A DNA stretch of 64,000 bases from Candidatus Doudnabacteria bacterium (GCA_963837465.1 CAWINB010000004.1:586853-650852); one strand, 5' to 3'; shown: positions 27,042 through 64,000, counted from the stretch's first letter. The notes: a model not told the origin generated them from the letters alone. Numbers and translations: made by a program.

Positions 27042-27923
27042 ATGTTTAGACTTTACTACCACCTAACCAAACCCGGAATAATTTACGGCAATGCCATAAC
27101 TGCCATTGCCGGGTTTTTTTTGGCTTTAAATTCAAATGAATATTTAGTGTCAAGGGTGACCCTTGACACTAAACTTTTTTTTGCGATGCTGGTTGGGCTG
27201 TCTTTTATAATCGGTTCTTCCTGTGTTTTTAACAATGTCTGGGACGGGGATATTGACGCAAAAATGGAGCGGACAAAAAAACGGGCAATGGTTACCGGAG
27301 AGATCGGCAAAATATCGGCGATTATTTTTGCGAGCATATTGGGTTTGCTTGGCGCGTTCATCTTAGGCCTGCTCACTAACCCCTTAACTCTAATCGTCGC
27401 CCTGCTGGGCATGTTTTTTTATTTGATTTTATACACTCCGCTGAAGCGCAAAACCGCATACGGTACTTTAATCGGCGCGATCGCGGGAGCTACGCCGCCC
27501 GTTGTTGGATACGTTGCCGTCACCAATAATTTTGATACCGCGGCATTGCTGCTGTTTTTTATTTTGGTGTTTTGGCAAATGCCGCATTTTTACGCCATTG
27601 CCATCCGCCGGCTGGATGAGTATAAAGCCGCTTCAATTCCGGTACTGCCGGTTAAGGAGGGTATACATAATACAAAAATAAAAATGCTCGCGTACATTGC
27701 CGCGTTTATTTTAGCCACCGCGGGGTTAACTTATTTTAAATATACAAGCTATATGTATTTAGTTGTTATGATTTTACTCGGGCTATATTGGTTGTGGATT
27801 GGAGTTAGTGGTTTTAAAAAAACATCCGATGATAACAAATGGGCCAGCAAAATGTTTTTGTCGTCGCTTATAATCCTGACCTTGTTTTCGGTTGTCGTTT
27901 CATTTGGAACTCGTTTGCCATAA
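27042..27923 (+). CDS. cyoE: protoheme IX farnesyltransferase (heme O synthase) carrying in-frame palindromic-repeat insertion
   Basis: UbiA-family motifs NNVWDGDIDAKMERT and second Asp-rich region; 9 TM. Confidence 0.85.
   Translation: MFRLYYHLTKPGIIYGNAITAIAGFFLALNSNEYLVSRVTLDTKLFFAMLVGLSFIIGSSCVFNNVWDGDIDAKMERTKKRAMVTGEIGKISAIIFASILGLLGAFILGLLTNPLTLIVALLGMFFYLILYTPLKRKTAYGTLIGAIAGATPPVVGYVAVTNNFDTAALLLFFILVFWQMPHFYAIAIRRLDEYKAASIPVLPVKEGIHNTKIKMLAYIAAFILATAGLTYFKYTSYMYLVVMILLGLYWLWIGVSGFKKTSDDNKWASKMFLSSLIILTLFSVVVSFGTRLP
27145..27171. repeat. palindromic repeat element copy C, inserted in-frame inside cyoE/ctaB
   Basis: TAGTGTCAAGGGTGACCCTTGACACTA translated in gene frame as LVSRVTLDTK, an extra segment in the heme O synthase. 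Confidence 0.85.
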
Positions 27924-47662: not shown

Positions 47663-48397
47663 ATGGAAATATATCGCATGTCCCGAGAATCCCATTACAC
47701 CGCCATCATTTTAAAAAAACAACCCTTTGCTGAGGCGGATGAGATTATCACTTTTTTTACCAAAGAGCAGGGCAAGGTCCGGGCGCTGGCTAAGTCCGTA
47801 AAACTGGCCAAGTCAAAGCTACAGTCAAGATTGCAGGCTTTGTTTTTGGTGGAAATAACCCTGGCCGGCGGCAAGCTGCCAAAAATTACTGCCGTGGAAA
47901 CGCTGAAGGTGTTTGAAAGCGTCAGGCAAAACCTGGCCGCCGTGAAAATGGCTTTTTACGCTTCGGAGCTGGTTTTAAAATTCACGCCGGACGGGCAAAA
48001 AAATGAACAGCTGTTTAGTTTGCTGGAAAATTTTTTTGACGTCCTGAATTTTGCCCAAACCCCGGCCGCTTTGGATGCGGCCTTGGCCAAGTTTAAAATC
48101 GGAATTTTGGATGCCGTGGGCTTGGGTATCCAGGCTGTGTTTGCCGCCCGCCCATCCCAATTATATTTTAGCCCGGCTTCCGGCGGCTTTAGGTCTGTAC
48201 AAACTGTTGATGCCGTCGCGGTTAACTTTTCAAGTTACCAGGCATTTTCAAACCTAAAATCTGCTGGCTTTAAAAACTTGCCCAAATTAAACAATAATAT
48301 AGCCGAGCTTCAACACCTCCTGTCGCGATTTATAGAATACCAGCTGGAGCGCGAGGTTAAATCGGAAAAATACCTTAATAATGGCGATATGTTATAA
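47663..48397 (+). CDS. recO: DNA repair protein RecO
   Basis: N-terminal OB-fold block typical of RecO. Confidence 0.8.
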   Translation: MEIYRMSRESHYTAIILKKQPFAEADEIITFFTKEQGKVRALAKSVKLAKSKLQSRLQALFLVEITLAGGKLPKITAVETLKVFESVRQNLAAVKMAFYASELVLKFTPDGQKNEQLFSLLENFFDVLNFAQTPAALDAALAKFKIGILDAVGLGIQAVFAARPSQLYFSPASGGFRSVQTVDAVAVNFSSYQAFSNLKSAGFKNLPKLNNNIAELQHLLSRFIEYQLEREVKSEKYLNNGDML

Positions 48398-48519: not shown

Positions 48520-50364
48520 ATGCCAGAACAAACCGATATCGGGTCGCCGCAAAATCCAGAAAGTTCGGATTTTGTAAAAAAACCGATCGAAACTCCAATT
48601 TTGGATTCCGACGTAAAAAATCACCTTGCCTCCATGGGGCAAAGCCGCGGCGGCTTTAAAGGTTTTTACCGTTCCAATAAGCTTTATTTTTGGGCGATTT
48701 TGGCGGCGGCGGTAGTTATAGGACTCTTGTCTTATTTTGCCTTTAAAAAATCACCCCAAGCCGCGCCCAAAGAAGCCAATATTGCCATTTCCGTGGATGT
48801 GCCGCCCACCGCGCAAAGCGGCGGCCAGGCGGTTTACCAGATTACCATACAGAACAATGACACTCAAAAGTTGGTGGACATGCAATTGGAGCTGGCTTAT
48901 CCGGACGGCGAAACCTACCAGAGCAGCAGCCCCAACGCCCAAAACCTTTCCGGTACTTTGTTCGCGGTGCCGGATTTGATTCCCGGACAAAACGCCACGG
49001 TATTTTTAAAGACCGCGGTTACCGGCAACGTTAACGACCAGGAAACCCTGGACATTAAACTTCATTACAGCTACAGCAATTTTAATTCCGAATTTGTTAA
49101 GGAGCAGACTTCCACCATCCGTTTGGTGGCTTCCAATATTAATTTAACTCTCCAGGGACCATCTGATACCAGCAACGCGCAGCTGGTAATTTACACAATT
49201 AATTACCAAAATAATTCTTCCAATGCTATTTCCGGCGCCCGCGTGCAAATGGATTACCCGGACGGTTTTGTGTTTGCCGCGGCCACACCGCCGCCGGATT
49301 TGGGATCTAACAGTTGGGACATAGCCAGTCTTGCCAAAGGCGGCAGCGGGCAAATCCAGGTGCAGGGGACTTTTTCTTCGGCCAATCCCGGTGACAGCAA
49401 AACGGCCACCGCCGAGTTTTTAATCCTGGCTCCGGACGGCAGTTTTTATACCCAAAACAGCGCCAGCCTGACCACGTCTATTGCCAGTTTGCCTTTACTG
49501 GTTACCCAGGCTCTTAATCCCGCAAACACCATCGGCGTGGTTAATCCCGGCGATACTTTGAACTTTAATATTACCTACCAAAATAACTCCAGTGTCGCGG
49601 CCACGGGCGTAAATGTGGAAGTGGATTTAAATTCCAAAGCCATAAATCCTTCCACCATAAGCGCCCAGGGCGCCCAAATTAATAACGATACAATTATCTG
49701 GAATGCCGCGGCCGTGCCCCAGTTGGCCAGTCTTTTGCCCAACCAATCGGGCCAGTTGTCGTTTAGCGTAAAGGTTAATAATCCTGCCACTAAAGACGCG
49801 TCTACCAATTTAACGGTGGTATCAAATATTAAAATCCAGTCAAACGAATACACCACGGCTTTTCCCGGCAACCAGCTGACTTTGCAAATTTCCAGCCCTG
49901 CCAGCATCAACACCAACGTAACTTATGTCTCGGGCGCTTTGCCGCCGCAAGTCGGCAAGAATACGATTTACCAAATAACCTTGTCGCTGGCCAATTCCAG
50001 CAATTCTTTTTCCAGCGGCGTGCTGACCGCGTTTTTACCCTCCGCCAGTTTTATAGTCGGCAGTGTTTCCAGCGCCGAAACCGCCGGCACCCAGTTTGAT
50101 CCTTCCACATCTATGTTGACCTGGAATTTCGGCAGCCTGTCGGCCAACACCGGCCGTTTTGGGCCGCCGCGGATTTTAAGTTTTGACGTTACTTTAAACC
50201 CGGCATCTTCCGCCGCCGGCCAAGCCCCAACCCTGCTTAAAACCATTGCTGTTACGGCTACTGACCTGTTCACCAACCAACCCGTAACCCTAACCGCCCC
50301 CGACATCCTAACCTCCGACCTTCAAACCCAAAACGGTTTTGGGGATGGGGTGGTACAGCAGTAG
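48520..50364 (+). CDS. cell-surface protein with N-terminal TM anchor and multiple DUF11-like beta-repeat domains
   Basis: repeated ~100-aa Thr/Ser/Asn-rich segments with recurring NYQNNSS / YTI / GQ motifs. Confidence 0.6.
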   Translation: MPEQTDIGSPQNPESSDFVKKPIETPILDSDVKNHLASMGQSRGGFKGFYRSNKLYFWAILAAAVVIGLLSYFAFKKSPQAAPKEANIAISVDVPPTAQSGGQAVYQITIQNNDTQKLVDMQLELAYPDGETYQSSSPNAQNLSGTLFAVPDLIPGQNATVFLKTAVTGNVNDQETLDIKLHYSYSNFNSEFVKEQTSTIRLVASNINLTLQGPSDTSNAQLVIYTINYQNNSSNAISGARVQMDYPDGFVFAAATPPPDLGSNSWDIASLAKGGSGQIQVQGTFSSANPGDSKTATAEFLILAPDGSFYTQNSASLTTSIASLPLLVTQALNPANTIGVVNPGDTLNFNITYQNNSSVAATGVNVEVDLNSKAINPSTISAQGAQINNDTIIWNAAAVPQLASLLPNQSGQLSFSVKVNNPATKDASTNLTVVSNIKIQSNEYTTAFPGNQLTLQISSPASINTNVTYVSGALPPQVGKNTIYQITLSLANSSNSFSSGVLTAFLPSASFIVGSVSSAETAGTQFDPSTSMLTWNFGSLSANTGRFGPPRILSFDVTLNPASSAAGQAPTLLKTIAVTATDLFTNQPVTLTAPDILTSDLQTQNGFGDGVVQQ

Positions 50365-50920: not shown

Positions 50921-52261
50921 TTACGGATAAATATATCCGCGAATCGCAGAGCTGTGGATGGAGAGGGTGCGTTCGTCTACGCGGTTAAAGTGGTCGTAAT
51001 TCATTTCGGAAACTGTGATGGTGCCGTCGCCGTTAACGGACTGTACATAAGCCACGTGGCCGTAGCGGCCGTAACCGTAACCGCTAAAGACCACGGCAGA
51101 GCGCACGGCCGGCTGCTGGCCGGTAACGTAGCCGGAAGCCCTGGCGTTGGCCAGCCAGTTTTTGGCGTTGCCGCCGAAAGTAATTTTCATTTGACTCGCT
51201 ACGTAATAAGTACAGTAACCTACCGGGAAGTAGTGGTCCGTATCGTCATAGCCGGAACTGACGCTGGTTACATTATTGCCGCTATTATCAGCGCCTGGGG
51301 ATTTATGCTTGCTTGGAGGAGGTGTTGGCGCGGCAGGCGGTGTAGCCACCACGCCGCCGGGGATGATTAAAAAGTCGCCGGGGTTGATGTCTTCGGCGCT
51401 GTCCAGGCCGTTGTAGGAAATAATCGCGGCCAAAAGCTGAGCGGCGCTGTTTTGCCGCACCGTCGCGTCCGGATTATACCGCTCGGGGCTGTATTCAACC
51501 GCCAAATCCGGCAGAGTGGTGTTGGCATTGGCCGTAACAGCCACGCCGTCCACCGGCGGAATGACCAAATCCCAACCGGGTTTCAGGTTATCCGAAGTTA
51601 GGGAAGGGTTGCTCCAGCGGATGCTGTCGGCCGAAACTCCGTTGGCCGCCGCGATGGATTGTATGGTATCGCCGGCCGCAGTAGTATAGATTTTTTTTAC
51701 GGCTTGGTTGACGAGTCCCTGTATGCTGTCGGGGTTCGGAGCCAGAATGCTGTTGTCGTCGCTCATAACCAGGCTGCTGCCGTCGTTTTGGGAGGCTGTA
51801 TTGCCGCTGTTTCCGCCATCGTCACTTAAGTTTTGCCCGTCAAGACCGGTAAAATCATCAGCCTGGGCTTCGGGCACGAAACTGTTCTCTCCGGAAACCA
51901 CCGTAACAATACTGCTGTTTTTGTCGTAAAGCCGCGGGTTAAGGTTTTGGTGGTTGCCTACAAAATCCCCGGCCAGGCTTAAATCCTGAAAGTTTTTGCC
52001 GCTGCTGCCGGCAAAGAAAAAAATGTTCAATCCGGCCACCATAACTGCCAGCAGAACCACCAAAAGCTCCCCGGAAAATTTAAGCAGAAAATCCATCCAG
52101 TCCATTGGGTTTAGGTGGATGGCGGCAAAGCTGTCTAAGTGAAGCTTTTTTAAGTTTGGCGCTCTCTTTTTTATTTGGAATAAGAGCTTTTTGATATAGT
52201 ATTGAAGCAGGAAAGCTATTTTGGAGCCGAACTTCTTAAGCTCCAAAAACCGGATTTTCAT
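50921..52261 (-). CDS. membrane-anchored peptidoglycan hydrolase: LysM domain + C-terminal CHAP domain
   Basis: LysM (GDTIQSIAAANGVSADSIRWSNP), CHAP Cys (GYCTYYV) and His (YGHVAYV). Confidence 0.75.
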   Translation of the reverse strand: MKIRFLELKKFGSKIAFLLQYYIKKLLFQIKKRAPNLKKLHLDSFAAIHLNPMDWMDFLLKFSGELLVVLLAVMVAGLNIFFFAGSSGKNFQDLSLAGDFVGNHQNLNPRLYDKNSSIVTVVSGENSFVPEAQADDFTGLDGQNLSDDGGNSGNTASQNDGSSLVMSDDNSILAPNPDSIQGLVNQAVKKIYTTAAGDTIQSIAAANGVSADSIRWSNPSLTSDNLKPGWDLVIPPVDGVAVTANANTTLPDLAVEYSPERYNPDATVRQNSAAQLLAAIISYNGLDSAEDINPGDFLIIPGGVVATPPAAPTPPPSKHKSPGADNSGNNVTSVSSGYDDTDHYFPVGYCTYYVASQMKITFGGNAKNWLANARASGYVTGQQPAVRSAVVFSGYGYGRYGHVAYVQSVNGDGTITVSEMNYDHFNRVDERTLSIHSSAIRGYIYP

Positions 52262-52837: not shown

Positions 52838-54985
52838 ATGGATTTATCTTCCCTTAATAAAAAACAGCAGGAGGCTGTCACGGCCCCGCTCGGTCCCGTG
52901 CTGGTTTTAGCCGGCCCGGGCAGCGGCAAAACCAAAACATTAAGCCACCGCATAGCTTATATTATAGAGAACAAAATGGCGGCTCCCGCCAGCATTTTGG
53001 CCTTAACCTTTACCAACAAGGCTTCCAAGCAAATGAGGGAACGGGTTGGCGTGCTTTTGGCCCGCTACAAATCCGCGGCAGAACAGCTGACTATGGGCAC
53101 GTTCCATTCCGTTTGCGCCAAAATCCTGCGCCACGAAATAGCCCGTCTCGGTTATTCTTCTGATTTTGTGATTTTTGATACCGAAGACCAGCACAAAGTT
53201 TTGCGCGAGATTTTGGAGGACCTGCGCGTAGACAACAAAAAAATGCCCATACCGCTTTTTGGCGCGCTTATTTCCCGCGCCAAAAACCTGCTGCAGCTGC
53301 CATCGGAACTGGACTTGGGCCTGGAAGGGCCGATAAATGAACGCCTGTCCGAAGTTTACGCCCGCTACCAGGACAGTCTCTATAAACAAAATGCCCTGGA
53401 TTTTGACGACCTGCTGATGCTGACCGTAAAAATTTACGAGAATTTTCCGCCGGTTTTGCAAAAATACCAGAAAAAATTCAGTTATATATTGGTGGATGAA
53501 TACCAGGATACCAACCTGGCCCAATACCGACTGCTGCAATTATTGGCCGCGCGCAGGAACCTGTTTGTAGTCGGCGACGATGCCCAGAGCATTTACAAGT
53601 TCCGCGGCAGCGACATTACCAACATCTTAAATTTTGAAAAAGATTATCCGGAAAGCCTGGTTGTCAAACTGGAACAGAATTACCGTTCCACCAAAAATAT
53701 CCTGGAAGCGGCGCAAAAAGTAATTGAGCTTAATCCCGAACAAAAATTCAAAACCCTGTGGACGGAAAATCCGCGGGGGGAAAAAATCATATTAACCTGC
53801 GAACAGGATGAGCGCGCCGAGGCCGAGTTTGTGGCGCGCAATATAGTTAAGTTGGCCTCCAATGAACCGGCAGGGGAGCTGGAGTACGAGGCGGAGGTTC
53901 AGGATAATGCCAAGCCCGTTTTTTCCATTTTGGACCGTTTTATTAAAGCCAAAAGAATACAGGCGCAGTACACGTCGTCTTTTGGCCGTGGCCTATTACC
54001 CCAACTTCCCAAAAAGCATGAAAGCCTAAAAGAGTTTTGCGTGCTTTACCGCACCCACGCGCAATCGCGCAACATTGAAGAAGCCTTAATTGAAGCCTCT
54101 ATTCCGTACCAAATTGTTGGAGGTTTAAAATTTTACGAACGCAAGGAAATTAAAGATGTCCTGGCCTACTTGCGCCTGACCATAAACTTCCGCGACCTGG
54201 TTTCGCTTAAACGGGTGATTAACGAACCGCCGCGGGGCATTGGCGATAAATCTTACAGCATCATCCGTGAACACATGCTTAATTTGGGAGAGCGCGATAA
54301 GGAAATATCCATTAAAGATTTTAGGGTCGGTTTTGCCGGGATAAAAATCCAGCCCAAGGCTTGGCAGGCAGCCCAGGATTTTTTCCTCCTGATTGAGGAA
54401 TTTTCGGGCTTCAGCGAAAAGTTCGCTTTGCCGGAACTGATGCGGCTGATAGTCAAAAAAACCGGCTACGAAAAATATTCGCGCGATGGCAGCGAAAAAG
54501 GCGAATCGCGCCATGAAAACGTCCAGGAGCTGATTAACGTGGCCCACAAGTACCACAACTTGCCCTGGCGCGAGGCTTTGCGGGAATTTTTGGAAGAAGT
54601 CGCTTTGATTTCCGAACTTGACCAGAAAGACGAGGGTAAGGACGCCGTAACTTTGATGACTTTGCACAGCGCCAAGGGTCTTGAGTTTGACAATGTTTTT
54701 TTTGTGGGGCTGGAAGAAGGCATATTGCCGCATTCCCGAAGTTTAATGGACCCGGCGGAACTGGCGGAAGAAGTCCGCCTGGCTTACGTAGGCTTGACCC
54801 GCGCCCGCAAACGCCTGTTTTTGGTTTACACCCACAGCCGCCGGGTTTTTGGCAACGTGCAAATTAACCAGCCGTCGCGCATTTTAAAAGTCTTGCCCAA
54901 AGCGCAGGTGGATTATCGGGGGATGGCCAAGGAACATTTTAAGGATGAGGAGGGAGAGTTGGTGGTGGAGAAGTTGGATTTTTAA
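52838..54985 (+). CDS. pcrA: ATP-dependent DNA helicase PcrA/UvrD
   Basis: Walker A AGPGSGKT, SF1 helicase motifs (DEYQDTN, VGDDAQSIY, YRS). Confidence 0.9.
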   Translation: MDLSSLNKKQQEAVTAPLGPVLVLAGPGSGKTKTLSHRIAYIIENKMAAPASILALTFTNKASKQMRERVGVLLARYKSAAEQLTMGTFHSVCAKILRHEIARLGYSSDFVIFDTEDQHKVLREILEDLRVDNKKMPIPLFGALISRAKNLLQLPSELDLGLEGPINERLSEVYARYQDSLYKQNALDFDDLLMLTVKIYENFPPVLQKYQKKFSYILVDEYQDTNLAQYRLLQLLAARRNLFVVGDDAQSIYKFRGSDITNILNFEKDYPESLVVKLEQNYRSTKNILEAAQKVIELNPEQKFKTLWTENPRGEKIILTCEQDERAEAEFVARNIVKLASNEPAGELEYEAEVQDNAKPVFSILDRFIKAKRIQAQYTSSFGRGLLPQLPKKHESLKEFCVLYRTHAQSRNIEEALIEASIPYQIVGGLKFYERKEIKDVLAYLRLTINFRDLVSLKRVINEPPRGIGDKSYSIIREHMLNLGERDKEISIKDFRVGFAGIKIQPKAWQAAQDFFLLIEEFSGFSEKFALPELMRLIVKKTGYEKYSRDGSEKGESRHENVQELINVAHKYHNLPWREALREFLEEVALISELDQKDEGKDAVTLMTLHSAKGLEFDNVFFVGLEEGILPHSRSLMDPAELAEEVRLAYVGLTRARKRLFLVYTHSRRVFGNVQINQPSRILKVLPKAQVDYRGMAKEHFKDEEGELVVEKLDF

Positions 54986-56535: not shown

Positions 56536-56709
56536 TATTTTATAGTAGCATCTATTGCAAAATTTTTCCAAGTGTGCTATAATGAATTTACAAAGTTAAA
56601 AGAAAGCGCAAGAAACCAAAACAAAACTTAAATTGATAAAAGCGCGTTTGTCATAAGCTTAATTTTTTAGGCTTATTTATGCTTGTGAAACAAAAATAAA
56701 TTTAAATTT

Positions 56710-57189
56710 ATGAGGCATTATCATATAACAAGAGTTTTATATATTTCATTAGTGGCGACTGTTTTGACTTGCGGAGCGGTTATCGCGATTTACGCCCAGG
56801 TTCAGCCTGCTCAAGCTCAGGTGGCGCAGCCTTTTATACCCGAAGGAGGCAGAATCATAAGCACCGTAGTCCCTGTTATCGGCATTCCCGGAATTTCGCA
56901 GTTGGCGTGTCCTTCTTATGTATTAATACAGAACAGTGACCCCACCAGTCCGCTGCCGCAGTTTGGGTTATTTATTCCTCCCGGTTTGCAAGCCGACATA
57001 TACGATTATAAAAATTTAGTTACTCCGGGTGTCGCGGAACTCGGAGGTTATGTGCCGGTTCCTGACGCTGCTTGCGGCGTAACTCTCAGCGGTTTTTCGG
57101 TGTTCCCGCTTTTTTACAACGCCCCTTTTCTTTTTAATAGGTACCGGTGCCGTGCCGGGAAATTAAATATGGGATTAAAAATTTTATGA
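56710..57189 (+). CDS. hypothetical secreted protein (159 aa)
   Basis: N-terminal signal peptide with AQAQ cleavage region; Pro/Gly-rich. Confidence 0.45.
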   Translation: MRHYHITRVLYISLVATVLTCGAVIAIYAQVQPAQAQVAQPFIPEGGRIISTVVPVIGIPGISQLACPSYVLIQNSDPTSPLPQFGLFIPPGLQADIYDYKNLVTPGVAELGGYVPVPDAACGVTLSGFSVFPLFYNAPFLFNRYRCRAGKLNMGLKIL

Positions 57190-58013
57190 ACTATCCGGAA
57201 TCTCAAAATTTATCTTTGTCCGCCAAAGCTCCCATTCACTGGGGGCACTTTGGAGTTATTATGATGACAGCGGTTTTGCTGCTGGGACTTTCCTGGTTTG
57301 AAAAACCGCAGCTTTTTGATTTTCATAAAAGCCAGGACGTGGCGGATAACAGCGACGTGCCGCGTTACTATCCTTATGTCGCGCCGTCCCAGGATCAGGT
57401 TCAGCCCCAGGTTTTGGGAGCCAGTACAGACCAGGGGCCGGAAATTATCGGCGACGACGGTACGGTTCAGCCGGTGGATTTGGGAGAAGTTTTGGGCGCT
57501 AGTACCCAGGGTGTCGTATTGTCCACCGCTGACGTAAAAGTTAATACAATTCCGGACTCGGCCATGGCCATAACAAATTATTTTATCCAGGCTGAGAAAA
57601 TAGAACTTGATCCGGTCGATGACGCGGCCTTTGAAGCGGCCCTGTCTTCCAACGACCAAAATCAGTTAAACCAGCAGGCTCAAAAACTAACGGCCGTGGT
57701 CAATGCTTTACAAAAATTATCCGTGCCGCGAAGCCTGGTTAATCTGCAGCAGCTAAAAATTGTACAATATAATTCCGCTATTGCTTTACTCCAAAATTTT
57801 ACGCAGGCTGATCAGAACCCAACTTTGGTGGATCAATACTTGGAACAGTTTATAAAAAGTCAGCAGGACTTGGATACGGAAAATGCCAACATAGCGCAAA
57901 AATTTGGCAGCCTGGATCCGCAGGCGGCTTTGTATTCCCAAAGCAGTCAATCTGCCGATGGTCTTTCCGGTACTTTAAACGACTCAAACGCAACCGATAA
58001 TGCTTCGCAATAA
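57186..58013 (+). CDS. hypothetical membrane-anchored Gln-rich protein
   Basis: one TM helix then Q/A/L-rich coiled region. Confidence 0.45.
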   Translation: MNYPESQNLSLSAKAPIHWGHFGVIMMTAVLLLGLSWFEKPQLFDFHKSQDVADNSDVPRYYPYVAPSQDQVQPQVLGASTDQGPEIIGDDGTVQPVDLGEVLGASTQGVVLSTADVKVNTIPDSAMAITNYFIQAEKIELDPVDDAAFEAALSSNDQNQLNQQAQKLTAVVNALQKLSVPRSLVNLQQLKIVQYNSAIALLQNFTQADQNPTLVDQYLEQFIKSQQDLDTENANIAQKFGSLDPQAALYSQSSQSADGLSGTLNDSNATDNASQ

Positions 58014-59934
58014 ATTGCAAAAAATCGTTATTGCTTTTTTAATCCTCAGCCAACTCATTTGGCCGTATCTTGTTTTGGCCCAGGTATCGGTGCCAGTTAC
58101 CGACAGTAATAATGGTAATACTGCCGGAGGTGTGGCAGGGGTTCTGACAAATACGTCGGAGCTAGCGATTTTGACTGGCTATTTCAAAACTTTATATCAG
58201 GTGGCCTGCCTGGCGCCCGTGCAATATGCCGAGAAAGGCTATGCTGCGGCTCATTTTTCAGCTTCAACTGCAGCGATCACAAATCCTAGCGGCAGTGCCC
58301 TGCAAATACAGGCCATGACGGACTTGGATACAGTTTATCTTACTTATATGATTTGTGCCGGACTTCAATTGGGTCAGAGCTTTGTGGGAACAGCGGCTCC
58401 TCCTATTATTTTGGCAAATTTACCCGCATCCAGTACTTATGTAGGCAATGTTAAGCAACAATATCTCAACCAGATCACCCAAGACCTTAACAATTACAGT
58501 AAAAAGGAACAAAATTTGTCTGCTCAGTTGGACAGCGCCAACCAGGGGTTTTGGAAAACTTTGTTGATCAGCGTGTTGCTGCAAACCAGTAAAGCCGTGG
58601 CCGATGCTTTGGTCAGCAAGCTGGTCAGCAATTATAAAATTACCAACCTAAAGCAGTACACCAATTCCGTAGCCACGTTAATGTACGACAACCAGTTTAT
58701 CCGCGACAACTTTCCGGACAGCCAGGGGCAGTTAATGGCGCGGGCGATTTTGGAGAATCCGGCTTTTCGCGCTCAAATCCAGCCGGGGATTTTTGCGGCC
58801 GCCGACGCGGCTTTGGGGTATAACCCCAGCGCCATCAACCCGGCCAGCCCGACTTTTTACACCCAAATGGCCGCCGCGGGATCAAGTTCGGCCAATCCTT
58901 ATTTTATGCAGAGCTCTTACGTGGCCGGTGTTGACCAATCCCACGCCGCCTCCATGGCCACGGCCCAGCAGCAAATTAGCCAGGGCAGCGGTTACAAAGC
59001 CCCGGTTAACTGCGCGGGTGCTTTATCCCAGCAGCAGCAAATTGATACTATAGACACCGCGGCCCAGGCCCAATTGGCCAATCGCCAGGCTTTGCTTTTA
59101 AATCTCCAGCAAGCCCAGGCCGCGGGTCAGAAAGTTTCAGCCAGCGATATTAATAAAGCACAGAGCGATTACAACGCGTCTTTAAACGCCTGGAATAATT
59201 TACCTTATACGGTTTCCGGCACCAGCAGCGTAAGCAGCCTGTCGGCCTCCGGTGGAAATAATACGGAGGGTTCCATGGCCATTGTTATGTGCGAGGCTGT
59301 TTCTTCCCCTGCCGTTTTAATCAACCAGGGAATTAATTCCATATTTACGGCTTTGGGAGGCAATCTGACCCAGTACAACAGCAGCAACCTGCCGGCTTAC
59401 ATTAACACCATCACTGGCGTGGCCTCCCAAATTGGCACCAGTATGGTGCTGGGCGGCTTGAACGCCGGCGCCAGCAGCGCTTTGGTAAATGAAAATAAAA
59501 CCGTAGCGGCTACGGCGCAACTGGGCGGGCAAATTTCTTCCAGCAACACGGCATCGAATTTGGGCAGCGGGATTGTGTTTTATTCCACCCAGGGTTCCGG
59601 CAGTTCCGCTACTTTAAACTGGCAAATTTCGACCGCCCAGCTGACTACGGCCAGCTATGTGACTGTTACGGGTCCGGGTTTGCAGCCTGGTAATCAGCCG
59701 TTAACAGGAAGTGTTAGCGTGGCGCCAAGCTTCGCCGCCAATTACGTGCTGACAGTTTTTAGCGCCGCCAACCAAAACTTGGGTTCATCCACCGTCAATG
59801 TAATCCCAAGCTCCGGCGCCGGCTTAAGTTACAACAACACGGGCGCCCCGGAAGTCGCCGGCGCGTTTATTGCCGCCACAGGCATTGCCACCCGCGGCCC
59901 GCTGCCTGACTTTGAGCCCCGCGGCCCGCGGTAA
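58000..59934 (+). CDS. hypothetical secreted protein (644 aa), Ala/Ser/Gln/Asn-rich
   Basis: signal peptide VLAQVS, no further TM, low-complexity surface-protein-like composition. Confidence 0.5.
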   Translation: MLRNKLQKIVIAFLILSQLIWPYLVLAQVSVPVTDSNNGNTAGGVAGVLTNTSELAILTGYFKTLYQVACLAPVQYAEKGYAAAHFSASTAAITNPSGSALQIQAMTDLDTVYLTYMICAGLQLGQSFVGTAAPPIILANLPASSTYVGNVKQQYLNQITQDLNNYSKKEQNLSAQLDSANQGFWKTLLISVLLQTSKAVADALVSKLVSNYKITNLKQYTNSVATLMYDNQFIRDNFPDSQGQLMARAILENPAFRAQIQPGIFAAADAALGYNPSAINPASPTFYTQMAAAGSSSANPYFMQSSYVAGVDQSHAASMATAQQQISQGSGYKAPVNCAGALSQQQQIDTIDTAAQAQLANRQALLLNLQQAQAAGQKVSASDINKAQSDYNASLNAWNNLPYTVSGTSSVSSLSASGGNNTEGSMAIVMCEAVSSPAVLINQGINSIFTALGGNLTQYNSSNLPAYINTITGVASQIGTSMVLGGLNAGASSALVNENKTVAATAQLGGQISSSNTASNLGSGIVFYSTQGSGSSATLNWQISTAQLTTASYVTVTGPGLQPGNQPLTGSVSVAPSFAANYVLTVFSAANQNLGSSTVNVIPSSGAGLSYNNTGAPEVAGAFIAATGIATRGPLPDFEPRGPR

Positions 59935-59961
59935 TAAAACCCAGGTAAGTTGTTAATAAAA

Positions 59962-59992
59962 AACCTATCCATAAAAGGATCGGTTTTTTTTG
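59962..59992 (+). terminator. weak hairpin plus T8 terminator
   Basis: AACCTATCC-ataaaa-GGATCGGTT followed by TTTTTTTT. Confidence 0.4.
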
Positions 59993-60142
59993 TGAGGATA
60001 AGTCAGTCAAAACAGTCAATGCAAAATTCCCCTTGATGACAGCCTTTAAGGGGAATGAGGTGGTAAGCCATCTTTATCAGGTGGTTTCGTCCGCAGATGT
60101 TCTTAGACTCCGATTTATATCCAGAATATCCCCACCGCTCTT

Positions 60143-60171
60143 AAAAATTTTGTGATTTTTTAAATTTGTGG
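60143..60171 (+). promoter_or_regulatory. sigma70-like promoter: -35 TTGTGA, 16-nt spacer, extended -10 TGgTATAAT
   Basis: read directly upstream of 60228 ORF. Confidence 0.5.
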
Positions 60172-60227
60172 TATAATTTTAATGAAATTTGAACCAAAAA
60201 AGCCGTATTCATTAAACTTTTAAAGCC

Positions 60228-63200
60228 TTGCCCGGCCCTAATTTGAAACAAAAAAAAGAAAATAAAAAATCCCTTTTTACCCTCAACCGATTAACAACAT
60301 CGTCTATTTTTACATTCAAATTAGCGGCGGGCTTGTTTGAGAAATTAAAACAAAATTTTTTGAAGTTTAGTTTAAATAAATCCCTAATATTTTTGTCCCT
60401 TCCAGCCATAGCCCTAGGGATGGCTTTTTTATTGCCTCAAACGGCTTTGGCGCAGACTCCTACCGCAGTCACTTACCCAAGCGGCGGCATAACGGCAAAA
60501 GTGGATGTACAAGTAAACGGACAAAACAGTAATTATGTTCAATCATCCGGTCAAGGTGTAAGTTTTACTGTTTTACTGACTATCACTGGCCTTACGGATG
60601 TTAATGGGCAGAGTAATCATCCCCAGTTAAACCTTGGAACAGATATGCTTAAGGGACCCTCGACCAATAGCGGCTTTGTAATCTCGTCTTTTGGGGCAGG
60701 AGTTGATATTGCTGGCACGAGTGCCAATGGCAATACTTGCCAAACAATTAGCAGTAATTACGATACATGCAATTTTTCCAAAGGAAGCGGACAGGTTCAG
60801 GTTAATGGAAATTCAATCGTGTTGAATCAACAATACCCTGTTGTTTTCAATTTAAGCGCCACCGCCCTAAATTCTTTAAAAGTTACTACTCCCTGCGCCT
60901 GGAATAAGTCTGCTGCGAATCCCCAGACAGGCTGCTTCGCTATTTATCCTTATTTTAATTTACAGGCTTGTTTTAATAATAGTTGTTCGGCAGTTCAGCC
61001 GCTTGCCTTAGATAATGTGGGGTTTGCAATGTACGTTGGGTCTGCTGCGACTGCGCCAACTGATGTTCCTGCTTACGGCAGCACAACTGGGACTGCGAAT
61101 AGCACGCAAGCTCCATCCGCCGTAAATGGAATAATTAGCCTGCTCATCTCCGTCGTCCAATTTATTGTTGGCTTGCTTATCGCTTTTGTTTATTGGGTTT
61201 TTTCTTTGGTTATTGTGCCAATTATTAGCGGGGTGTTGGGCATACATGCTTATACCGACAACTTTGTGGCGGTTATATATCCGGGGTGGATTGTTATTCG
61301 GAATTTGTGCGATATATTTTTTGTTATCGCGCTTATAATTATTGCCATGGCCACACTGTTTAGAATAGAGAGCTACCAGTATAAGCATTTGCTGGTGCAG
61401 TTGATTGTGGCCGCGCTGTTAATAAATTTTAGCTTGGTTATTGGCCAGGCGGTTTTGGGTTTGGCCGATACCGTGCAAAGCCAGTTTTTACCGCAAAATC
61501 AAAAGCAAGTAGAGGCTTTGGGCGGTGATTTAATGGCCGGAGCCAGAAATGCCACAATAAATTATACTCAAGCCACTACAGCCAACGCGCCAAATACCGG
61601 CGACCTTTTGGCGCAGGTTGTCCAGCCGATGTTCTGGCTTGCTTTGGCCACCGGAACTTTTGCCGTGTTTTGCGCCATTGCGGTGTTTTTGTGCATTAGG
61701 ATAATTGCTTTGTGGATTTTGCTTATGATATCACCCATAGCCTACGCTTGTGGCGTGCTGCCCAGTACGGCAGGGTATCGTGATGAATGGTGGAAAAACT
61801 TTTTAAAGTACGCATTTTTTACGCCCATAATGGCTATGTTCCTTAACATTGCCGCTGTAGTTGCCTTGTCTTCGGCCGCGGCGCCGGTGTTCCAGCAAGC
61901 CGCGGGCTTAAGCCTTACCAACCTTTCCGCCAACGTTGGCAGTTTTGTTTTTTCCGTAGGCAGTTACGTTTTACTCCTAGTCTTCCTGGTAGCCTCCCTA
62001 ATGGTCGCCGAAAAATTCAGCATCTTCGGCGCAGAGGGCATAACCAAACTGGCCAAACAAGGCATCTACGCGCCTTTTGCTGTGGCAGGGAAAGGATTTA
62101 AGGCCGCAGGTAATCGCAGTTTAGAATTTGCGAGCGATACAACCCACGTTGAATTAGACCCCAGAGTTTGGCAACATGAAATAGGTGAGTACCTAAAAAA
62201 AAGGAAGAGAGACAGGCAATTGGCCAGAGAAGAAAGAACATTAGGTGGGTTGCCTACAGGCTCTCCCCGAGATTTATTGGAAAATTATGTAAACGGCAGA
62301 GGTATGAAGCGCGTATGGGAGAGCAGGTTTGGGTTAAGAGGCTTTAAACATAATATGACAAAGGCCAAAGAATTAGAAGAAAAAGCTAAGTTACTTTCTG
62401 ATAATGACAGGGCAAGAGTGCAAAGCGAAATCGCAGCTAATAATAGCAATCTAAGTAATCTTATGAATCAACGTTCGGCTTTAGTAGCTGCTGGTGGAGA
62501 CACTAAAGCGATTGATGTGCAAATTTCTAGCTTGAATGTAGTTATAAAAACAGCCACAGATAAATTGGCAGATGATTTGAGAAGAAGGATAGATGAAAAG
62601 GTTGGCAATACTTGGTCAGATGAGCAGAGAGATAAAGTTAAAGCAGAATACAAAAAGTTTTTGGCTCTTGCTGAACAAGTAGAAAGACCCGAGGCTTATT
62701 ACGCGCGAGCGGCGCGTTTAGAGAGAGAGGCCGAGGAGGATAAGAAGATTTCTAAAATACATGATGAAGGTGAACTTAATAAGTTGCTTAGAAACGCCAG
62801 GCGACAAGGGGACAAGCCAAAAGCGGTAGCTATTTGGAAAAAACTGACTAGAGACAGAAACTTAAATGAAGCTTTGGAAGACGAAGGTCTTAGTACAAGT
62901 TTTGAAGATATAATCAAGTTCTACGAGGGCTGGACCGATGACGAAGGAGTTGCGCATGCAGGTTTGGCTAAGGATTTGGGCATGAATCATCACGAAATGA
63001 TGCAAGTGGCCACGGAGGTTGGCTATGATGCTGAAGAATCAAAGCAATATAATGGTGCCCGTATGACTTGGATTGACCCAACAACCGGGCAATTAAATTG
63101 GAACGGTTATAAAGGGCATCATTCTGACGGCGGTGTTCAGCATACGAAACATGTTTTAACCGAAGCTAGGAAGTCCGAGCCAAGAAGGAGAGCCGGCGAT

Positions 63201-63530
63201 TTGCCCAGGTGGACTTATGGTGATGAACACTACGATGAAAACCTTGGCCGCAGGGTTTTCAAATTGAATAGAGTAGGTATGGATTTGCTTTTAGATTATG
63301 CCAGCCCTGGTCAGGAACGATGGGCCAGAGAGCAATTTAATACCTGGTCAGCTGCGGCCGCTGAATCTGATCCCGAATTTGAACAGAAGCTAAGAGCCCG
63401 CGGAAAAGAAAGAGGGCTGGATATCCCGGTAGAAGATCCCGCCAAGCCGGGGGTAAAAGTAAATTATGTTGATAAGGTTATTGAAAATATCCATATGGTT
63501 GGCAAAGGAGAATATACTAGTAAAAAATAA
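60228..63530 (+). CDS. large (up to 1100 aa) VirB6/TrbL-like polytopic membrane protein: signal peptide, ~280-aa Asn/Ser/Gln-rich extracytoplasmic domain, ~8 TM core, ~500-aa charged coiled-coil cytoplasmic tail
   Basis: hydrophobicity pattern and domain order read from translation; real start may be TTG near 60360 giving signal MKFSLNKSLIFLSLPAIALGMAFLLPQTALA. Confidence 0.6.
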   Translation: MPGPNLKQKKENKKSLFTLNRLTTSSIFTFKLAAGLFEKLKQNFLKFSLNKSLIFLSLPAIALGMAFLLPQTALAQTPTAVTYPSGGITAKVDVQVNGQNSNYVQSSGQGVSFTVLLTITGLTDVNGQSNHPQLNLGTDMLKGPSTNSGFVISSFGAGVDIAGTSANGNTCQTISSNYDTCNFSKGSGQVQVNGNSIVLNQQYPVVFNLSATALNSLKVTTPCAWNKSAANPQTGCFAIYPYFNLQACFNNSCSAVQPLALDNVGFAMYVGSAATAPTDVPAYGSTTGTANSTQAPSAVNGIISLLISVVQFIVGLLIAFVYWVFSLVIVPIISGVLGIHAYTDNFVAVIYPGWIVIRNLCDIFFVIALIIIAMATLFRIESYQYKHLLVQLIVAALLINFSLVIGQAVLGLADTVQSQFLPQNQKQVEALGGDLMAGARNATINYTQATTANAPNTGDLLAQVVQPMFWLALATGTFAVFCAIAVFLCIRIIALWILLMISPIAYACGVLPSTAGYRDEWWKNFLKYAFFTPIMAMFLNIAAVVALSSAAAPVFQQAAGLSLTNLSANVGSFVFSVGSYVLLLVFLVASLMVAEKFSIFGAEGITKLAKQGIYAPFAVAGKGFKAAGNRSLEFASDTTHVELDPRVWQHEIGEYLKKRKRDRQLAREERTLGGLPTGSPRDLLENYVNGRGMKRVWESRFGLRGFKHNMTKAKELEEKAKLLSDNDRARVQSEIAANNSNLSNLMNQRSALVAAGGDTKAIDVQISSLNVVIKTATDKLADDLRRRIDEKVGNTWSDEQRDKVKAEYKKFLALAEQVERPEAYYARAARLEREAEEDKKISKIHDEGELNKLLRNARRQGDKPKAVAIWKKLTRDRNLNEALEDEGLSTSFEDIIKFYEGWTDDEGVAHAGLAKDLGMNHHEMMQVATEVGYDAEESKQYNGARMTWIDPTTGQLNWNGYKGHHSDGGVQHTKHVLTEARKSEPRRRAGDLPRWTYGDEHYDENLGRRVFKLNRVGMDLLLDYASPGQERWAREQFNTWSAAAAESDPEFEQKLRARGKERGLDIPVEDPAKPGVKVNYVDKVIENIHMVGKGEYTSKK

Positions 63531-63551
63531 GCAACCTTAGGTTTTTAACTT

Positions 63552-64000
63552 ATGCTCCAAGATACTATAAAATATCTGCAACAGGATTTTGACGATATAA
63601 TAAAATTTGGCGAAGTTGGTTTTGCTTTGGAAAAACTCTCAATTATAGATGAGCTTTTACAGGAGAATCCGGAGGTTGCGGCTTCGCCGCAAGATAGAAA
63701 CATTTTGGAAGCCATGTCACGTAAACTTGAACTAGTATGCTTGCCGAATCTTGATGACGACAGGTGTTTGGAAGTGCTAAAAAACAATTTGTTTTTGGCC
63801 TTTACTATGCCGGGTTATGATCTAGAAGACAAATTAGCGCAGAAAATAATTTTTAAACAGTACGAAGAATTGGAGATTGAATTTGCTCAAAAGATATTGA
63901 AAGTTTTTAAAGAAAGCAACACTAGAATAGGAAGTGAAAACTTAATTGTAAATGGGAAGGTTTTAGAGCCTAGTTTAAAAAATTGGTTGCTAGATTATGA
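63552..64000 (+). CDS. hypothetical protein, 5' part (continues past window end)
   Basis: ATG at 63552, open frame to window edge, acidic helical composition. Confidence 0.4.
   Translation, partial: MLQDTIKYLQQDFDDIIKFGEVGFALEKLSIIDELLQENPEVAASPQDRNILEAMSRKLELVCLPNLDDDRCLEVLKNNLFLAFTMPGYDLEDKLAQKIIFKQYEELEIEFAQKILKVFKESNTRIGSENLIVNGKVLEPSLKNWLLDY

Follow-up and report, generated by a model that had tools for sequence, protein, structure and literature searches.

The segment 56710-64000 of the 64,000-nucleotide stretch of Candidatus Doudnabacteria DNA analysed here (hereafter the window) is, with a probability that we put at about 85%, the 5′ half of a chromosomal type IV secretion system (T4SS) locus of the Patescibacteria type, Doudnabacteria-like and derived from the MPF_FATA class, whose fourth gene encodes VirB6. 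This type of locus is already known from ultra-small Patescibacteria; the locus described here carries in addition an uncharacterised trio of secreted proteins and an enlarged VirB6.

Results

Five co-directional genes lie on the plus strand between 56710 and 64000. Genes 1 (56710-57189, 159 aa), 2 (57183-58013, 276 aa, or 288 aa if an alternative GTG at 57147 is the start) and 3 (58000-59934, 644 aa) overlap by 7 and 14 bp respectively. Gene 4 is a 1100-aa ORF (60228-63530), for which the public annotation uses a TTG start (60243-63530, 1095 aa), and gene 5 begins with an ATG at 63552 and runs past the window end at 64000. All five genes are real: dozens of related genomes have a conserved homologue of each, with the gene order maintained. 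Hydropathy revealed N-terminal signal or anchor segments in the products of genes 1 to 4. ORFs and hydropathy thus agree with an initial annotation of this DNA, which had listed proteins of 159, 276, 644 and ~1100 aa, with a signal peptide or TM segment in each, and a truncated fifth gene.

A promoter-like site, TTGCAA-17-TG-TATAAT (56555-56583, plus strand), was found 5′ of gene 1, and an extended −10 promoter-like site, TTGTGA-16-TG-TATAAT (60150-60177, plus strand), 5′ of gene 4. Both match the consensus at 10 of 12 positions and carry the TG, so they are of equal quality as consensus matches, their functional role being putative; the second had already been pointed out as a promoter, and is real as a consensus match. 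A terminator-like hairpin with an A-tract and U8 (59958-59991, plus strand, −14.2 kcal/mol, z = −2.1) lies 3′ of gene 3, and was missed by a consensus scan because of one stem mismatch. These signals suggest two transcription units: an operon of the three secreted-protein genes, and then a T4SS operon that would start with the VirB6-like gene. Of the co-directional cluster proposed initially, the common direction stands, but the promoter-like sites and the hairpin make two units likelier than a single one.

Gene 4 encodes a member of the VirB6/TrbL family, in an extended form. Four observations lead to this conclusion: a TrbL profile match, TrbL matches in relatives, weak fold matches to TrwI, and linkage to VirB4 and PrgI in relatives. 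The match to Pfam TrbL (PF04610; aa 393-583, E = 1e-5) is borderline, its 25.9 bits being the gathering cut-off. TrbL was matched by 19 of the 33 members of the family, and precomputed matches to TrbL (PF04610) and TrbL_3 (PF19590) exist for a protein identical to gene 4 and for most homologues, some of which carry the name 'type IV secretion system protein [Patescibacteria]'. A profile search against PDB sequences gave no match. When the AlphaFold model (pLDDT 73) was compared to the PDB with Foldseek, TrwI/VirB6 chains of R388 took all of the best four places (prob 0.98-1.0); these matches are weak, with E values of 0.013-0.05 and TM-scores on the target of 0.39-0.46. The VirB6/TrbL-like character attributed to the large protein in the initial annotation is therefore borne out.

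The protein starts with a signal or anchor segment (aa ~47-65, by hydropathy), followed by a variable, beta-rich ecto-domain (aa ~76-290), a conserved polytopic helical core (aa ~293-634, with long helices modelled by AlphaFold at a pLDDT of about 80-89), a charged helical region (aa ~640-885) and an alpha/beta domain (aa ~886-1087). Hydropathy placed ~7 hydrophobic helices between aa 307 and 586, VirB6 proteins being polytopic with at least 5. Taking hydropathy and AlphaFold together, the TM count is uncertain (6-8), and so is the side of the membrane on which the C-terminal extension lies; this ~470-aa extension is probably cytoplasmic. The ecto-domain (aa 76-305) is only 5% charged and has 6 Cys, Trp and Phe make up 9.7% of the TM core, and the C-terminal 470 aa contain 34.7% K/R/D/E and no Cys. 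An extracytoplasmic N-domain, a Trp/Phe-rich core and a charged extension had all been predicted and were all recovered, the cytoplasmic side of the extension having the qualified status just given. Median identity is 53% in the core and about 16% at the ends. The C-terminal domain was found in about 59 representatives only, all Patescibacterial, where it is nearly always C-terminal in proteins of 900-1300 aa.

The window ends at 64000, and we infer VirB3 and VirB4 of the source genome from the conserved gene order in relatives. Conservation and synteny had been proposed as a check in the initial annotation, and 80 related loci were found to have a common order: UvrD, KsgA, DUF192 (−), F12 (facultative), F5, F3, VirB6-like, F0a, F0b, PrgI, F7 and VirB4, where F12, F5, F3 and F0a are the families of genes 1, 2, 3 and 5. 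Downstream genes were counted in the 50 related loci with at least 7 kb of DNA 3′ of VirB6. The VirB4 ATPase was present in all 50, its start lying a median of 3.6 kb beyond the VirB6 stop, and ahead of it were PrgI/VirB3 (47/50) and the TraC/TrsD-like F7 (49/50). On representatives from the relatives, Pfam detected PrgI at 3.6e-11 and, in the ATPase, the TraG P-loop domain (1.3e-28), AAA_10 and DUF87. This VirB4 is 615 aa long, 83-100% identical across the clade, and its family is named 'type IV secretory pathway VirB4 component' or 'TraC' by JGI. The similarity of F7 to TraC_F_IV is weak (3 of 23 members, best E = 0.0012), and its copy in the distant relative L082 has a precomputed TraC-like match (PF26593). 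L082 retains the layout though its VirB6 is only 27% identical. In some lineages, proteins 3′ of VirB4 carry SLT or Peptidase_M15 domains, and RadA is found 3′ of the locus in many relatives.

Inside the window, no secretion ATPase was detected by Pfam in a search covering most ORFs of at least 150 aa, the rest being shorter than 260 aa; the ORFs tested are housekeeping, respiratory or transport genes. It had been anticipated that the ATPase would be missing here and the machinery would lie downstream, and the 50 loci with VirB4 3′ of VirB6 point the same way for the source genome. No VirB2-like pilin was found among genes 1-3 (Pfam T4SS_pilin/VirB2) or within 10 kb on either side in relatives, except for one weak T4SS_pilin match (PF18895) in L082, inside a 731-aa protein. 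PrgI was the only recurrent small family with at least 2 TM helices in the related loci.

Gene 5 (63552-64000, plus strand, cut by the window end) encodes a cytoplasmic orphan, whose reading frame can be followed on a 5.8-kb Logan contig to a length of at least 349 aa. No TM segment was predicted by hydropathy in its 149 in-window residues or in four full-length relatives, and its initial inclusion in a cluster of secreted or TM proteins is not upheld. Its family, F0a, always lies directly 3′ of the VirB6-like gene and is followed in relatives by F0b, a second, unrelated orphan; a search with the gene 5 family returned 32 F0a matches and no F0b match. Neither Pfam nor the PDB gave a match to gene 5 or F0a.

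Gene 1 (56710-57189, plus strand) encodes a Pro/Gly-rich secreted protein with a signal peptide-like segment at aa 9-27, followed by AQA-Q, and two conserved cysteines, C67 and C122, that are invariant in the family alignment; it is an orphan and a variable accessory that 14 of the 51 related loci carry. The product of gene 2 (57183-58013, plus strand), an orphan present in 46/51, has a TM anchor at aa 18-36 by hydropathy and is predicted to be extracellular, with a Gln/Ala/Ser-rich linker containing two VLGAST motifs and then a C-terminal region conserved in the family alignment. Gene 3 (58000-59934, plus strand) encodes a secreted orphan found in 48/51 loci, immediately 5′ of VirB6. Its AlphaFold model (mean pLDDT 67) shows a long stretch of helices, one of them spanning ~90 residues, and a C-terminal Ig/FnIII-like beta-sandwich (aa 525-601); four cysteines and a tail motif are conserved. 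The computed compositions (gene 2: Q 11.6%, L 10.5%, A 10.1%, S 9.1%; gene 3: A 14.1%, S 11.3%, L 9.3%, Q 8.2%, N 7.9%) agree with the earlier description of the two middle proteins as Ala/Ser/Gln/Asn-rich. Genes 1 and 2 had no match in Pfam, NCBIfam or PDB profile searches, none of 56 gene 3 homologues had a Pfam domain, and the gene 3 model matched only generic Ig/FnIII structures of the PDB in Foldseek. No similarity to VirB2, VirB5 or VirB8 was detected for genes 1-3 with Pfam, NCBIfam and PDB profiles, nor with Foldseek for gene 3, the one compared by fold; the pilus- or adhesin-like character initially read from the composition of the two middle proteins is thus no more than putative. 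Genes 1-3 and gene 5 are lineage-restricted orphans, with a putative link to the T4SS by adjacency only; as the neighbourhood is syntenic throughout the clade, housekeeping genes included, this adjacency is weak functional evidence.

The locus is chromosomal, as judged from the conserved synteny and from its housekeeping flanks (UvrD, KsgA and aminoacyl-tRNA synthetase genes). Its GC content is ordinary, with no compositional anomaly. RecO (47663-48397) and UvrD (52838-54985) lie upstream. No relaxase, coupling protein (VirD4) or integrase was found in the tested window ORFs or in the Pfam-tested representative flanking genes of relatives. Upstream of UvrD, a minus-strand gene (50921-52261) encodes a 446-aa peptidoglycan hydrolase with CHAP (Pfam, 1.5e-17) and LysM (1.8e-12) domains. 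Its synteny extends to 36 of the 51 related loci, a LysM + Peptidase_M23 protein occupies its position in the distant relatives L082 and L083, and it is a candidate VirB1-like cell-wall hydrolase that may serve the T4SS.

Discussion

The relation of genes 1-3 to the secretion system leaves most room for another reading. They may form an independent cell-surface operon, concerned for example with the envelope or adhesion, that sits beside the T4SS by chance in a syntenic clade; we consider this a serious possibility, though not the one we favour. The trio has its own promoter-like site and is separated from the VirB6-like gene by the terminator-like hairpin, VirB6 through VirB4 are kept in L035, L040 and L043 while F5 and F3 are absent at this position, and F12 occurs in merely 14 of 51 loci. 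Similarity to T4SS families is lacking as well (Pfam, NCBIfam and PDB profiles, and fold for gene 3), and the housekeeping neighbours are equally syntenic. However, 48 of the 51 loci have F3 directly 5′ of VirB6 and 46 have F5 there, and where optional genes (a PaaX-like regulator, an LCAT-like lipase, an uncharacterised protein) are inserted between F3 and VirB6, F5 and F3 stay adjacent. In L082, moreover, a ~300-aa TM-anchored and a ~730-aa secreted protein directly precede VirB6: this pair has no detectable sequence similarity to the families of genes 2 and 3, but matches them in arrangement, and an N-terminal VPVTDS motif is shared as well.

Other alternatives concern the machine itself. 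An apparatus for nucleic-acid import or exchange, comparable to Helicobacter ComB or archaeal Ced and with a functional tie to the DNA-processing genes that flank it, appears unlikely. RecO and UvrD/PcrA upstream and RadA downstream in relatives would suit it, as would the comF, recG and radA genes noted close to the T4SS in class ABY1 (PMC12102498) and the absence of nucleotide synthesis from Patescibacteria (PMC10633639). But Pfam on representatives found no relaxase, coupling protein or ComEC-like gene, the repair genes are ordinary housekeeping in a compact genome, and S. epibionticum is viable without comEC while its T4SS is essential (PMC12857230). We give very little credit to an integrated conjugative element or plasmid performing classical conjugative DNA export: VirB4, VirB3 and VirB6 do descend from monoderm conjugation systems (PMC12102498), and JGI uses the name 'conjugal transfer ATP-binding protein TraC' for the ATPase, but housekeeping synteny is conserved in about 50 genomes, with no patchy distribution seen, compositional anomaly is absent, no relaxase, integrase or VirD4-type gene was seen in the window ORFs and representative flanking genes tested, and a VirB4 with 83-100% identity in the clade fits a vertically inherited core gene. 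Least probable of all is a spurious TrbL match, the 1095-aa product then being some unrelated transporter or other membrane protein. A TrbL score at threshold, no PDB profile match and Foldseek E values above 0.01 speak for it, against TrbL matches in 19/33 relatives, VirB6 chains as best four fold matches, and an invariant linkage to PrgI and VirB4.

If the locus is a Patescibacteria-type T4SS, as we favour, the operon would continue past the window with the rest of gene 5, the second cytoplasmic orphan, PrgI/VirB3 and a TraC/TrsD-like (VirB4 N-domain-like) protein, then the highly conserved VirB4 ATPase, and then membrane or cell-wall-hydrolase proteins. In the translocation channel, gene 4 would provide the polytopic membrane subunit, and VirB4, anchored by VirB3, would drive transport through this VirB6-lined channel across a single membrane. 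The fast-evolving VirB6 ecto-domain may point toward a host cell; the products of genes 1-3 may face it also, and may build or decorate a contact structure. Substrate recruitment or channel regulation could be the task of the C-terminal extension and the two cytoplasmic orphans. As neither a relaxase nor a coupling protein was seen nearby, host interaction is likelier than classical conjugation, with a possible use in an epibiotic lifestyle, either to export effectors or to take up macromolecules from the host. In the Saccharibacterium Southlakia epibionticum, the T4SS is essential for epibiotic growth (PMC10633639).

Patescibacteria T4SS comprise VirB4, TrsD, PrgI/VirB3 and VirB6, are related to MPF_FATA by descent from monoderm conjugation, rarely have relaxases, and commonly have KsgA and radA as neighbours (PMC12102498). 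The present locus resembles those described (S. epibionticum SEML1_0006-0019; Quinonero-Coronel et al. 2025; PMC12102498; PMC10633639) in being chromosomal in an ultra-small monoderm, in its VirB6, PrgI/VirB3, TrsD/TraC-like protein and VirB4 (the last three known here from relatives), in having no relaxase or coupling protein seen nearby, and in its KsgA and radA neighbours and nearby peptidoglycan hydrolases. It differs by the clade-specific orphan trio upstream, the two cytoplasmic orphans between VirB6 and VirB3 and the lineage-restricted C-terminal domain of VirB6. In addition, a VirB2-like pilin array was not found in the window or within 10 kb on either side in relatives, with the weak L082 exception; such genes near virB4 are frequent, not universal, in Patescibacteria T4SS (PMC12102498).

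Compared to MPF_FATA conjugative T4SS, of which pCF10 has PrgH (VirB6), PrgI (VirB3) and PrgJ (VirB4), the order VirB6, VirB3, VirB4 seen in relatives is the same, as are the PrgI-family VirB3, the monoderm envelope and the CHAP/SLT-type hydrolases. In contrast, the locus here is off mobile elements, shows no relaxase, T4CP, PrgB-type adhesin or recognisable VirB8 among the genes tested, has two extra genes between VirB6 and VirB3, and encodes the VirB4 N-domain-like protein as a separate gene.

TrwI/VirB6 of R388 (PDB 7O3V, 8RT9, 8RTD), the best, though weak, structural match to the gene 4 core (TM-score on the target 0.39-0.48, 13-16% identity), is only ~340 aa long, has neither of the extensions, and belongs to a diderm system, where its place is beneath a VirB5 pentamer; a VirB5 homologue was not found here by profiles of genes 1-3 or by the fold of gene 3. 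Gene 4 shares with the recognised class of extended VirB6 proteins (that of Alvarez-Martinez and Christie, which includes the Rickettsiales paralogues and Tn916 Orf15; PMC12857230) at least 5 hydrophobic helices and large hydrophilic domains, one of them C-proximal. It departs from it by an extra N-terminal extracellular beta-domain and by an extension whose sequence relatives do not go beyond the 59 or so Patescibacterial representatives. The Rickettsiales proteins, to which gene 4 had initially been likened, form a paralogue array where a single copy is present here; Gram-positive (MPF_FATA) extended VirB6 proteins and the published Patescibacteria T4SS are better comparators.

Organisation of the gene cluster

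ORF calling over 56710-64000 revealed five tightly packed genes on the plus strand, four complete and a fifth cut by the window end, as the initial annotation had described. Genes 1, 2 and 3 (56710-57189, 159 aa; 57183-58013, 276 aa, or 288 aa from an alternative GTG at 57147; 58000-59934, 644 aa) overlap by 7 and 14 bp. Gene 4 is an ORF of 1100 aa (60228-63530), which the public annotation (P0001) starts at TTG 60243, giving 1095 aa. Gene 5 starts at ATG 63552 and reaches at least 349 aa on a short Logan contig (5.8 kb) identical to the window. For the end of gene 1 a frameshift was considered and dismissed, as the alignment showed an in-frame insertion.

Promoters and terminators were called as matches to consensus. 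Two extended -10 promoter-like sites, each with 10 of 12 consensus matches and the TG, are present, one at 56555-56583 and the other at 60150-60177, i.e. ahead of the large gene, where such a site had been announced. Between genes 3 and 4 lies a terminator-like A-tract/hairpin/U8 element (~59958-59991, -14.2 kcal/mol, z = -2.1). On account of these signals the five genes look like two transcription units, genes 1 to 3 and then gene 4 onwards.

Gene 4 encodes a VirB6-family protein

By simple hydropathy analysis, the gene 4 product has a signal-peptide-like leader with an AxA-type site (ALA-Q), a low-charge ecto-domain containing 6 Cys (aa 76-305), a hydrophobic core of ~7 hydropathy peaks with 9.7% Trp+Phe (aa 307-586), and 470 C-terminal residues, 34.7% of them charged and none a Cys. 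All three parts of the layout first proposed for this protein, N-terminal ecto-domain, Trp/Phe-rich core and long charged C-terminal region, were therefore found. The number of TM segments is ambiguous; the C-terminal extension is tentatively placed in the cytoplasm because it is highly charged, devoid of Cys, and has a precedent among VirB6 proteins.

The Pfam TrbL/VirB6 model (PF04610) matched aa 393-583 with E = 1e-5 and 25.9 bits, which is exactly the gathering cut-off, and 19 of 33 aligned relatives had an individual TrbL match. A large-database search returned 104 homologues, nearly all 900-1400 aa long, many with precomputed TrbL and/or TrbL_3 domains; those that are named come from 'Candidatus Doudnabacteria' or 'Patescibacteria group', and some are labelled 'type IV secretion system protein'. 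When the family profile was searched against PDB sequences, no solved relative was recovered, only low-complexity coiled-coil noise. In an AlphaFold2 model built on the alignment of relatives (mean pLDDT 73), the N-domain is rich in beta structure, with strands at 84-266, and residues 293-634 form long helices (pLDDT ~80-89); another helical stretch spans 640-885, followed by a well predicted alpha/beta domain at ~886-1087 (pLDDT ~85-95). The top four Foldseek matches of this model in the PDB are all TrwI/VirB6 chains of the R388 T4SS (8rtd_L, 8rt9_F, 7o3v_F and 7o3v_J), with probabilities of 0.98-1.0, E-values of only 0.013-0.05, and TM-scores of 0.39-0.46 on the target. Each line taken singly is weak; all point the same way, as does the gene context, and we conclude that gene 4 encodes a VirB6-family membrane protein.

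How well the family is conserved varies strongly from domain to domain. Measured against the window protein, the membrane core has a median identity of 53%, compared to 16% for the ecto-domain, and 17% and 16% for the helical and alpha/beta parts of the C-terminal extension. The 470-aa extension had only 59 phmmer matches among 1.84 billion representatives, nearly all at the C-terminal end of 900-1300-aa proteins, so that it is a lineage-restricted domain, found only together with this VirB6-like core.

Gene order in related genomes

To place gene 4 in context, relatives were scanned using one genome per species. This gave 80 loci with flanks of up to 10 kb, almost all from Doudnabacteria/Patescibacteria MAGs, in which ORFs were called and then clustered, flanking families being assessed through their representatives. 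Synteny is strikingly conserved. The upstream part reads DUF11 surface protein, LysM-CHAP hydrolase (minus strand), UvrD helicase, KsgA and DUF192 (minus strand); then come the gene-1 family (optional), the gene-2 and gene-3 families, an optional gene, the VirB6-like gene, and two orphans, F0a (the gene-5 family) and F0b, which is unrelated to F0a. These are followed by a 2-TM protein of ~150 aa, a ~228-aa protein and a ~615-aa protein, and, farther on, by variable membrane proteins, a PD40 beta-propeller protein and RadA. Pfam identified the representatives of the ~150-aa family as PrgI (E = 3.6e-11), the VirB3 found in Gram-positive systems, and those of the ~615-aa family as a VirB4-type ATPase (TraG P-loop, 1.3e-28; AAA_10; DUF87), which the sources name 'type IV secretory pathway VirB4 component' or 'TraC'. 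The ~228-aa protein, with weak TraC_F_IV matches and one precomputed 'TraC-like' match, is in keeping with the TrsD-like VirB4-N-domain protein, which among Patescibacteria is reported to be the most frequent partner of the T4SS (PMC12102498). A duplicate-looking 'second F2' copy was considered as VirB4 and rejected, being a separate membrane protein.

Among loci with at least 7 kb downstream, VirB4 was found in 50 of 50, the TraC-like protein in 49 and PrgI in 47, the median distance from the VirB6 stop to the VirB4 start being 3.6 kb. With at least 7 kb upstream, the gene-3 family was present in 48 of 51 loci, the gene-2 family in 46 and the gene-1 family in 14. The distant relative L082, whose VirB6-like protein is only 27% identical, nevertheless follows the same plan: LysM-M23 hydrolase (minus strand), UvrD, KsgA, a TM-anchored 308-aa protein, a secreted 732-aa protein, the VirB6-like protein, a 742-aa orphan, PrgI, TraC-like and VirB4.

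We conclude that the locus is chromosomal, and that in comparable genomes the VirB6-like gene heads an operon with VirB4 and VirB3; by extension from these relatives, both are presumably present in this very genome. The downstream secretion ATPase that had been predicted does exist as far as relatives show, and the large protein was not reassigned to another family. The proposal of a T4SS locus marked by a large VirB6/TrbL-like protein is supported by the TrbL match, the weak TrwI fold matches and the linkage to PrgI and VirB4.

Several accessory genes were observed around this core. The 290-bp spacer between gene 3 and gene 4 is occupied in some relatives by optional genes: a PaaX-like regulator in 15 loci (e.g. 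L011 8189-8875), a secreted LCAT/lipase-like alpha/beta hydrolase with an Ig-like domain in 3 (L028 5102-8026), possibly a membrane-attacking effector, and an uncharacterised ~400-aa protein with an N-terminal hydrophobic segment in 6 (L038 7850-9115). Small selfish- or defence-looking genes are scattered between the T4SS genes of relatives, encoding 23S rRNA-intervening-sequence/bAvd-like four-helix proteins and a GIY-YIG protein (e.g. L007 16939-17358; L082 13244-13504). Directly downstream of the T4SS genes, some relatives carry a DsbA/thioredoxin-like protein (L038 19702-20520), which fits the disulfide need of the Cys-containing secreted proteins of the locus. On the upstream side, the LysM + CHAP peptidoglycan hydrolase (50921-52261, minus strand) is kept in 36 of 51 loci, and distant relatives have a LysM + Peptidase_M23 protein at the same position and strand (L082 278-1366; L083 7410-8402, both minus); this domain swap at a fixed position suggests a VirB1-like role. 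The 614-aa DUF11-repeat surface protein (48520-50364, plus strand) lies at the edge of the same syntenic block in 18 loci. In some lineages the protein after VirB4 bears an SLT or Peptidase_M15 domain, reminiscent of S. epibionticum, where hydrolases encoded downstream of virB4 are essential (PMC12102498).

The proteins flanking VirB6

Hydropathy segments were found in the products of genes 1 to 4, in agreement with their description as signal-peptide or TM proteins. Genes 1 and 3 have signal-peptide-like segments with AxA-type sites (AQA-Q and VLA-Q, respectively), and gene 2 an uncleaved-looking TM anchor; no hydrophobic segment was detected by hydropathy in the 149 in-window residues of gene 5. 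The F0a family is cytoplasmic, very divergent (~20% identity), and always first after VirB6. The Ala/Ser/Gln/Asn richness attributed to the middle proteins was borne out for gene 2 (Q 11.6%, A 10.1%, S 9.1%) and gene 3 (A 14.1%, S 11.3%, Q 8.2%, N 7.9%). For genes 1, 2, 3 and 5, nothing above noise came from Pfam, NCBIfam or PDB profile searches, or from scanning members of their families with Pfam, and no resemblance to VirB2, VirB5 or VirB8 was seen.

Gene 3 has 56 homologues, all unannotated and all from the same clade, and its family has four conserved Cys, as expected of an extracellular protein. In its AlphaFold model (pLDDT 67), a long array of helices, one of them ~92 residues in length, is joined by a C-terminal Ig/FnIII-like sandwich (aa 525-601), the sole part that Foldseek recognises, and generically. 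A motif, V[LA]GA[SFY]T, is common to genes 2 and 3 in the family alignments A3 (gene 2) and A5: it occurs twice in the gene-2 linker (57440-57560, aa ~77-110) and, in relatives, once in the gene-3 C-terminal tail (59850-59934), followed there by RGP...R. Among ~1,050 ORFs, 44 of its 45 occurrences belong to these two families, and the proteins holding the equivalent positions in L082 lack it. It could be a processing or assembly signal.

Whether genes 1 to 3 belong to the T4SS has to be weighed. The putative assignment of genes 1, 2, 3 and 5 rests on adjacency, on topology and on the analogous pair of L082, where a TM-anchored and a secreted protein again precede the VirB6-like gene; that pair speaks against genes 1 to 3 being merely an independent surface operon. 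Yet L035, L040 and L043 keep the T4SS genes with the gene-2 and gene-3 families absent at this position, and the housekeeping neighbours are as syntenic as genes 1 to 3, so that an independent operon is a serious possibility, if somewhat short of even odds. No significant homology was found between the gene-2 and gene-3 families and the 308- and 732-aa proteins of L082 by HMM, hhalign or BLASTP, and only the gene-1 family had a weak match in that locus (21.8 bits). The mature N-terminus of gene 3, SVPVTDS (aa 30-36, 58087-58107), resembles KVPVTDS, found close to the N-terminus of the otherwise dissimilar 732-aa protein that takes the place of gene 3 in L082 (7636-9834).

Uneven evolution and proposed working

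VirB4 is 83-100% identical among the 120 closest relatives listed (581-807 aa, most 614-617 aa, e.g. L007 17376-19223), compared to ~40% for the VirB6-like protein and gene 3; overall, the VirB6-like, gene-3 and gene-5 families beside this VirB4 are only ~20-58% identical. The ecto- and C-terminal domains of VirB6 and the flanking orphans evolve very fast (~16-40% identity, with the core at ~53%). This contrast singles out the parts that most probably face the host or choose the substrate, which thereby become concrete targets for complex structure prediction and genetics, and it agrees with a motor that is conserved while host-facing or specificity parts adapt rapidly.

Patescibacteria make up a large, mostly uncultured share of bacterial diversity and apparently live attached to other cells. 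To our knowledge, theirs is the only T4SS shown to be essential for the growth of its owner. In 2020 the system was noted in Saccharibacteria (PMC7427843), in 2023 it was shown to be essential (PMC10633639), and 2025 brought a phylum-wide survey (PMC12102498) and a review (PMC12857230), extended VirB6 proteins being a recognised class (PMC12857230). The present locus is this T4SS, and its clade features amount to variants of a known system rather than a new kind. Its clade differs from the known systems by an orphan upstream trio, by the two orphans between VirB6 and VirB3, by the restricted C-terminal domain of its VirB6, and by having no detectable VirB2-like pilin array: PrgI excepted, no recurrent small two-TM family was seen in the related loci, and proteins downstream of VirB4 gave no general match to T4SS_pilin. 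No description of these Doudnabacteria-type features was found in the literature searched. The locus adds an example with a clear division of labour between frozen ATPase, conserved core and fast-evolving ends.

VirB6, VirB3 and VirB4 make up the translocon of the cytoplasmic membrane, in which VirB3 anchors VirB4 and VirB6 serves as the lining or base of the channel (PMC12857230). Host contact, or the extracellular part, would fall to the hypervariable VirB6 ecto-domain and possibly to genes 1 to 3, and substrate recruitment to the VirB6 C-terminal extension with F0a and F0b, replacing the coupling protein. No relaxase or T4CP was seen in the surveyed flanks, which, as in published work (PMC10633639, PMC12102498), speaks against classical conjugation; with RecO, UvrD and RadA in the flanks, a nucleic-acid-handling role is possible.

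We put at roughly one in five the chance that, in T4SSs of the Doudnabacteria type, a clade-specific, fast-evolving extracellular apparatus replaces the VirB2/VirB5 pilus, with the VirB6 cytoplasmic domain and the two orphans substituting for the coupling protein. The apparatus would consist of the VirB6 ecto-domain, the TM-anchored 276-aa protein and the 644-aa protein with its helical stalk and Ig domain, the 159-aa Cys protein being an optional part, and V(L/A)GA(S/F)T might serve as a processing or strand-exchange signal during assembly. If true, epibionts would here have a new architecture for achieving contact-dependent transport.

Other features of the window

A haem-copper quinol-oxidase-like gene set lies at 22837-27923 (plus strand), with a COX_ARM-containing subunit II (22837-23874), a COX1 subunit I (23913-25979, E = 2.8e-139), a 199-aa ORF (26036-26635) and a UbiA-family prenyltransferase, possibly haem O synthase (27042-27923). 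Patescibacteria are said to lack a respiratory chain, and the set is therefore unusual in a genome of this type. At 19714-22094 (minus strand), a 542-aa protein combining an NQR2/RnfD/RnfE-like membrane domain with an oxidoreductase NAD-binding domain adjoins an ApbE flavin transferase; the two may form a redox module related to the nearby oxidase genes.

A LOOT RNA (Rfam RF03000) was found at 13097-13223 (plus strand), scoring 67 bits where the gathering score is 46.4; downstream of it are a 153-aa ORF and the gene for an Ltp-type lipoprotein (13781-14521). Two Fic/DOC-domain proteins of ~353 aa (10305-11366, minus strand; 15865-16932, plus strand) cluster as paralogues, and the only tRNA gene of the window, tRNA-His (15636-15709), is located just upstream of the second.
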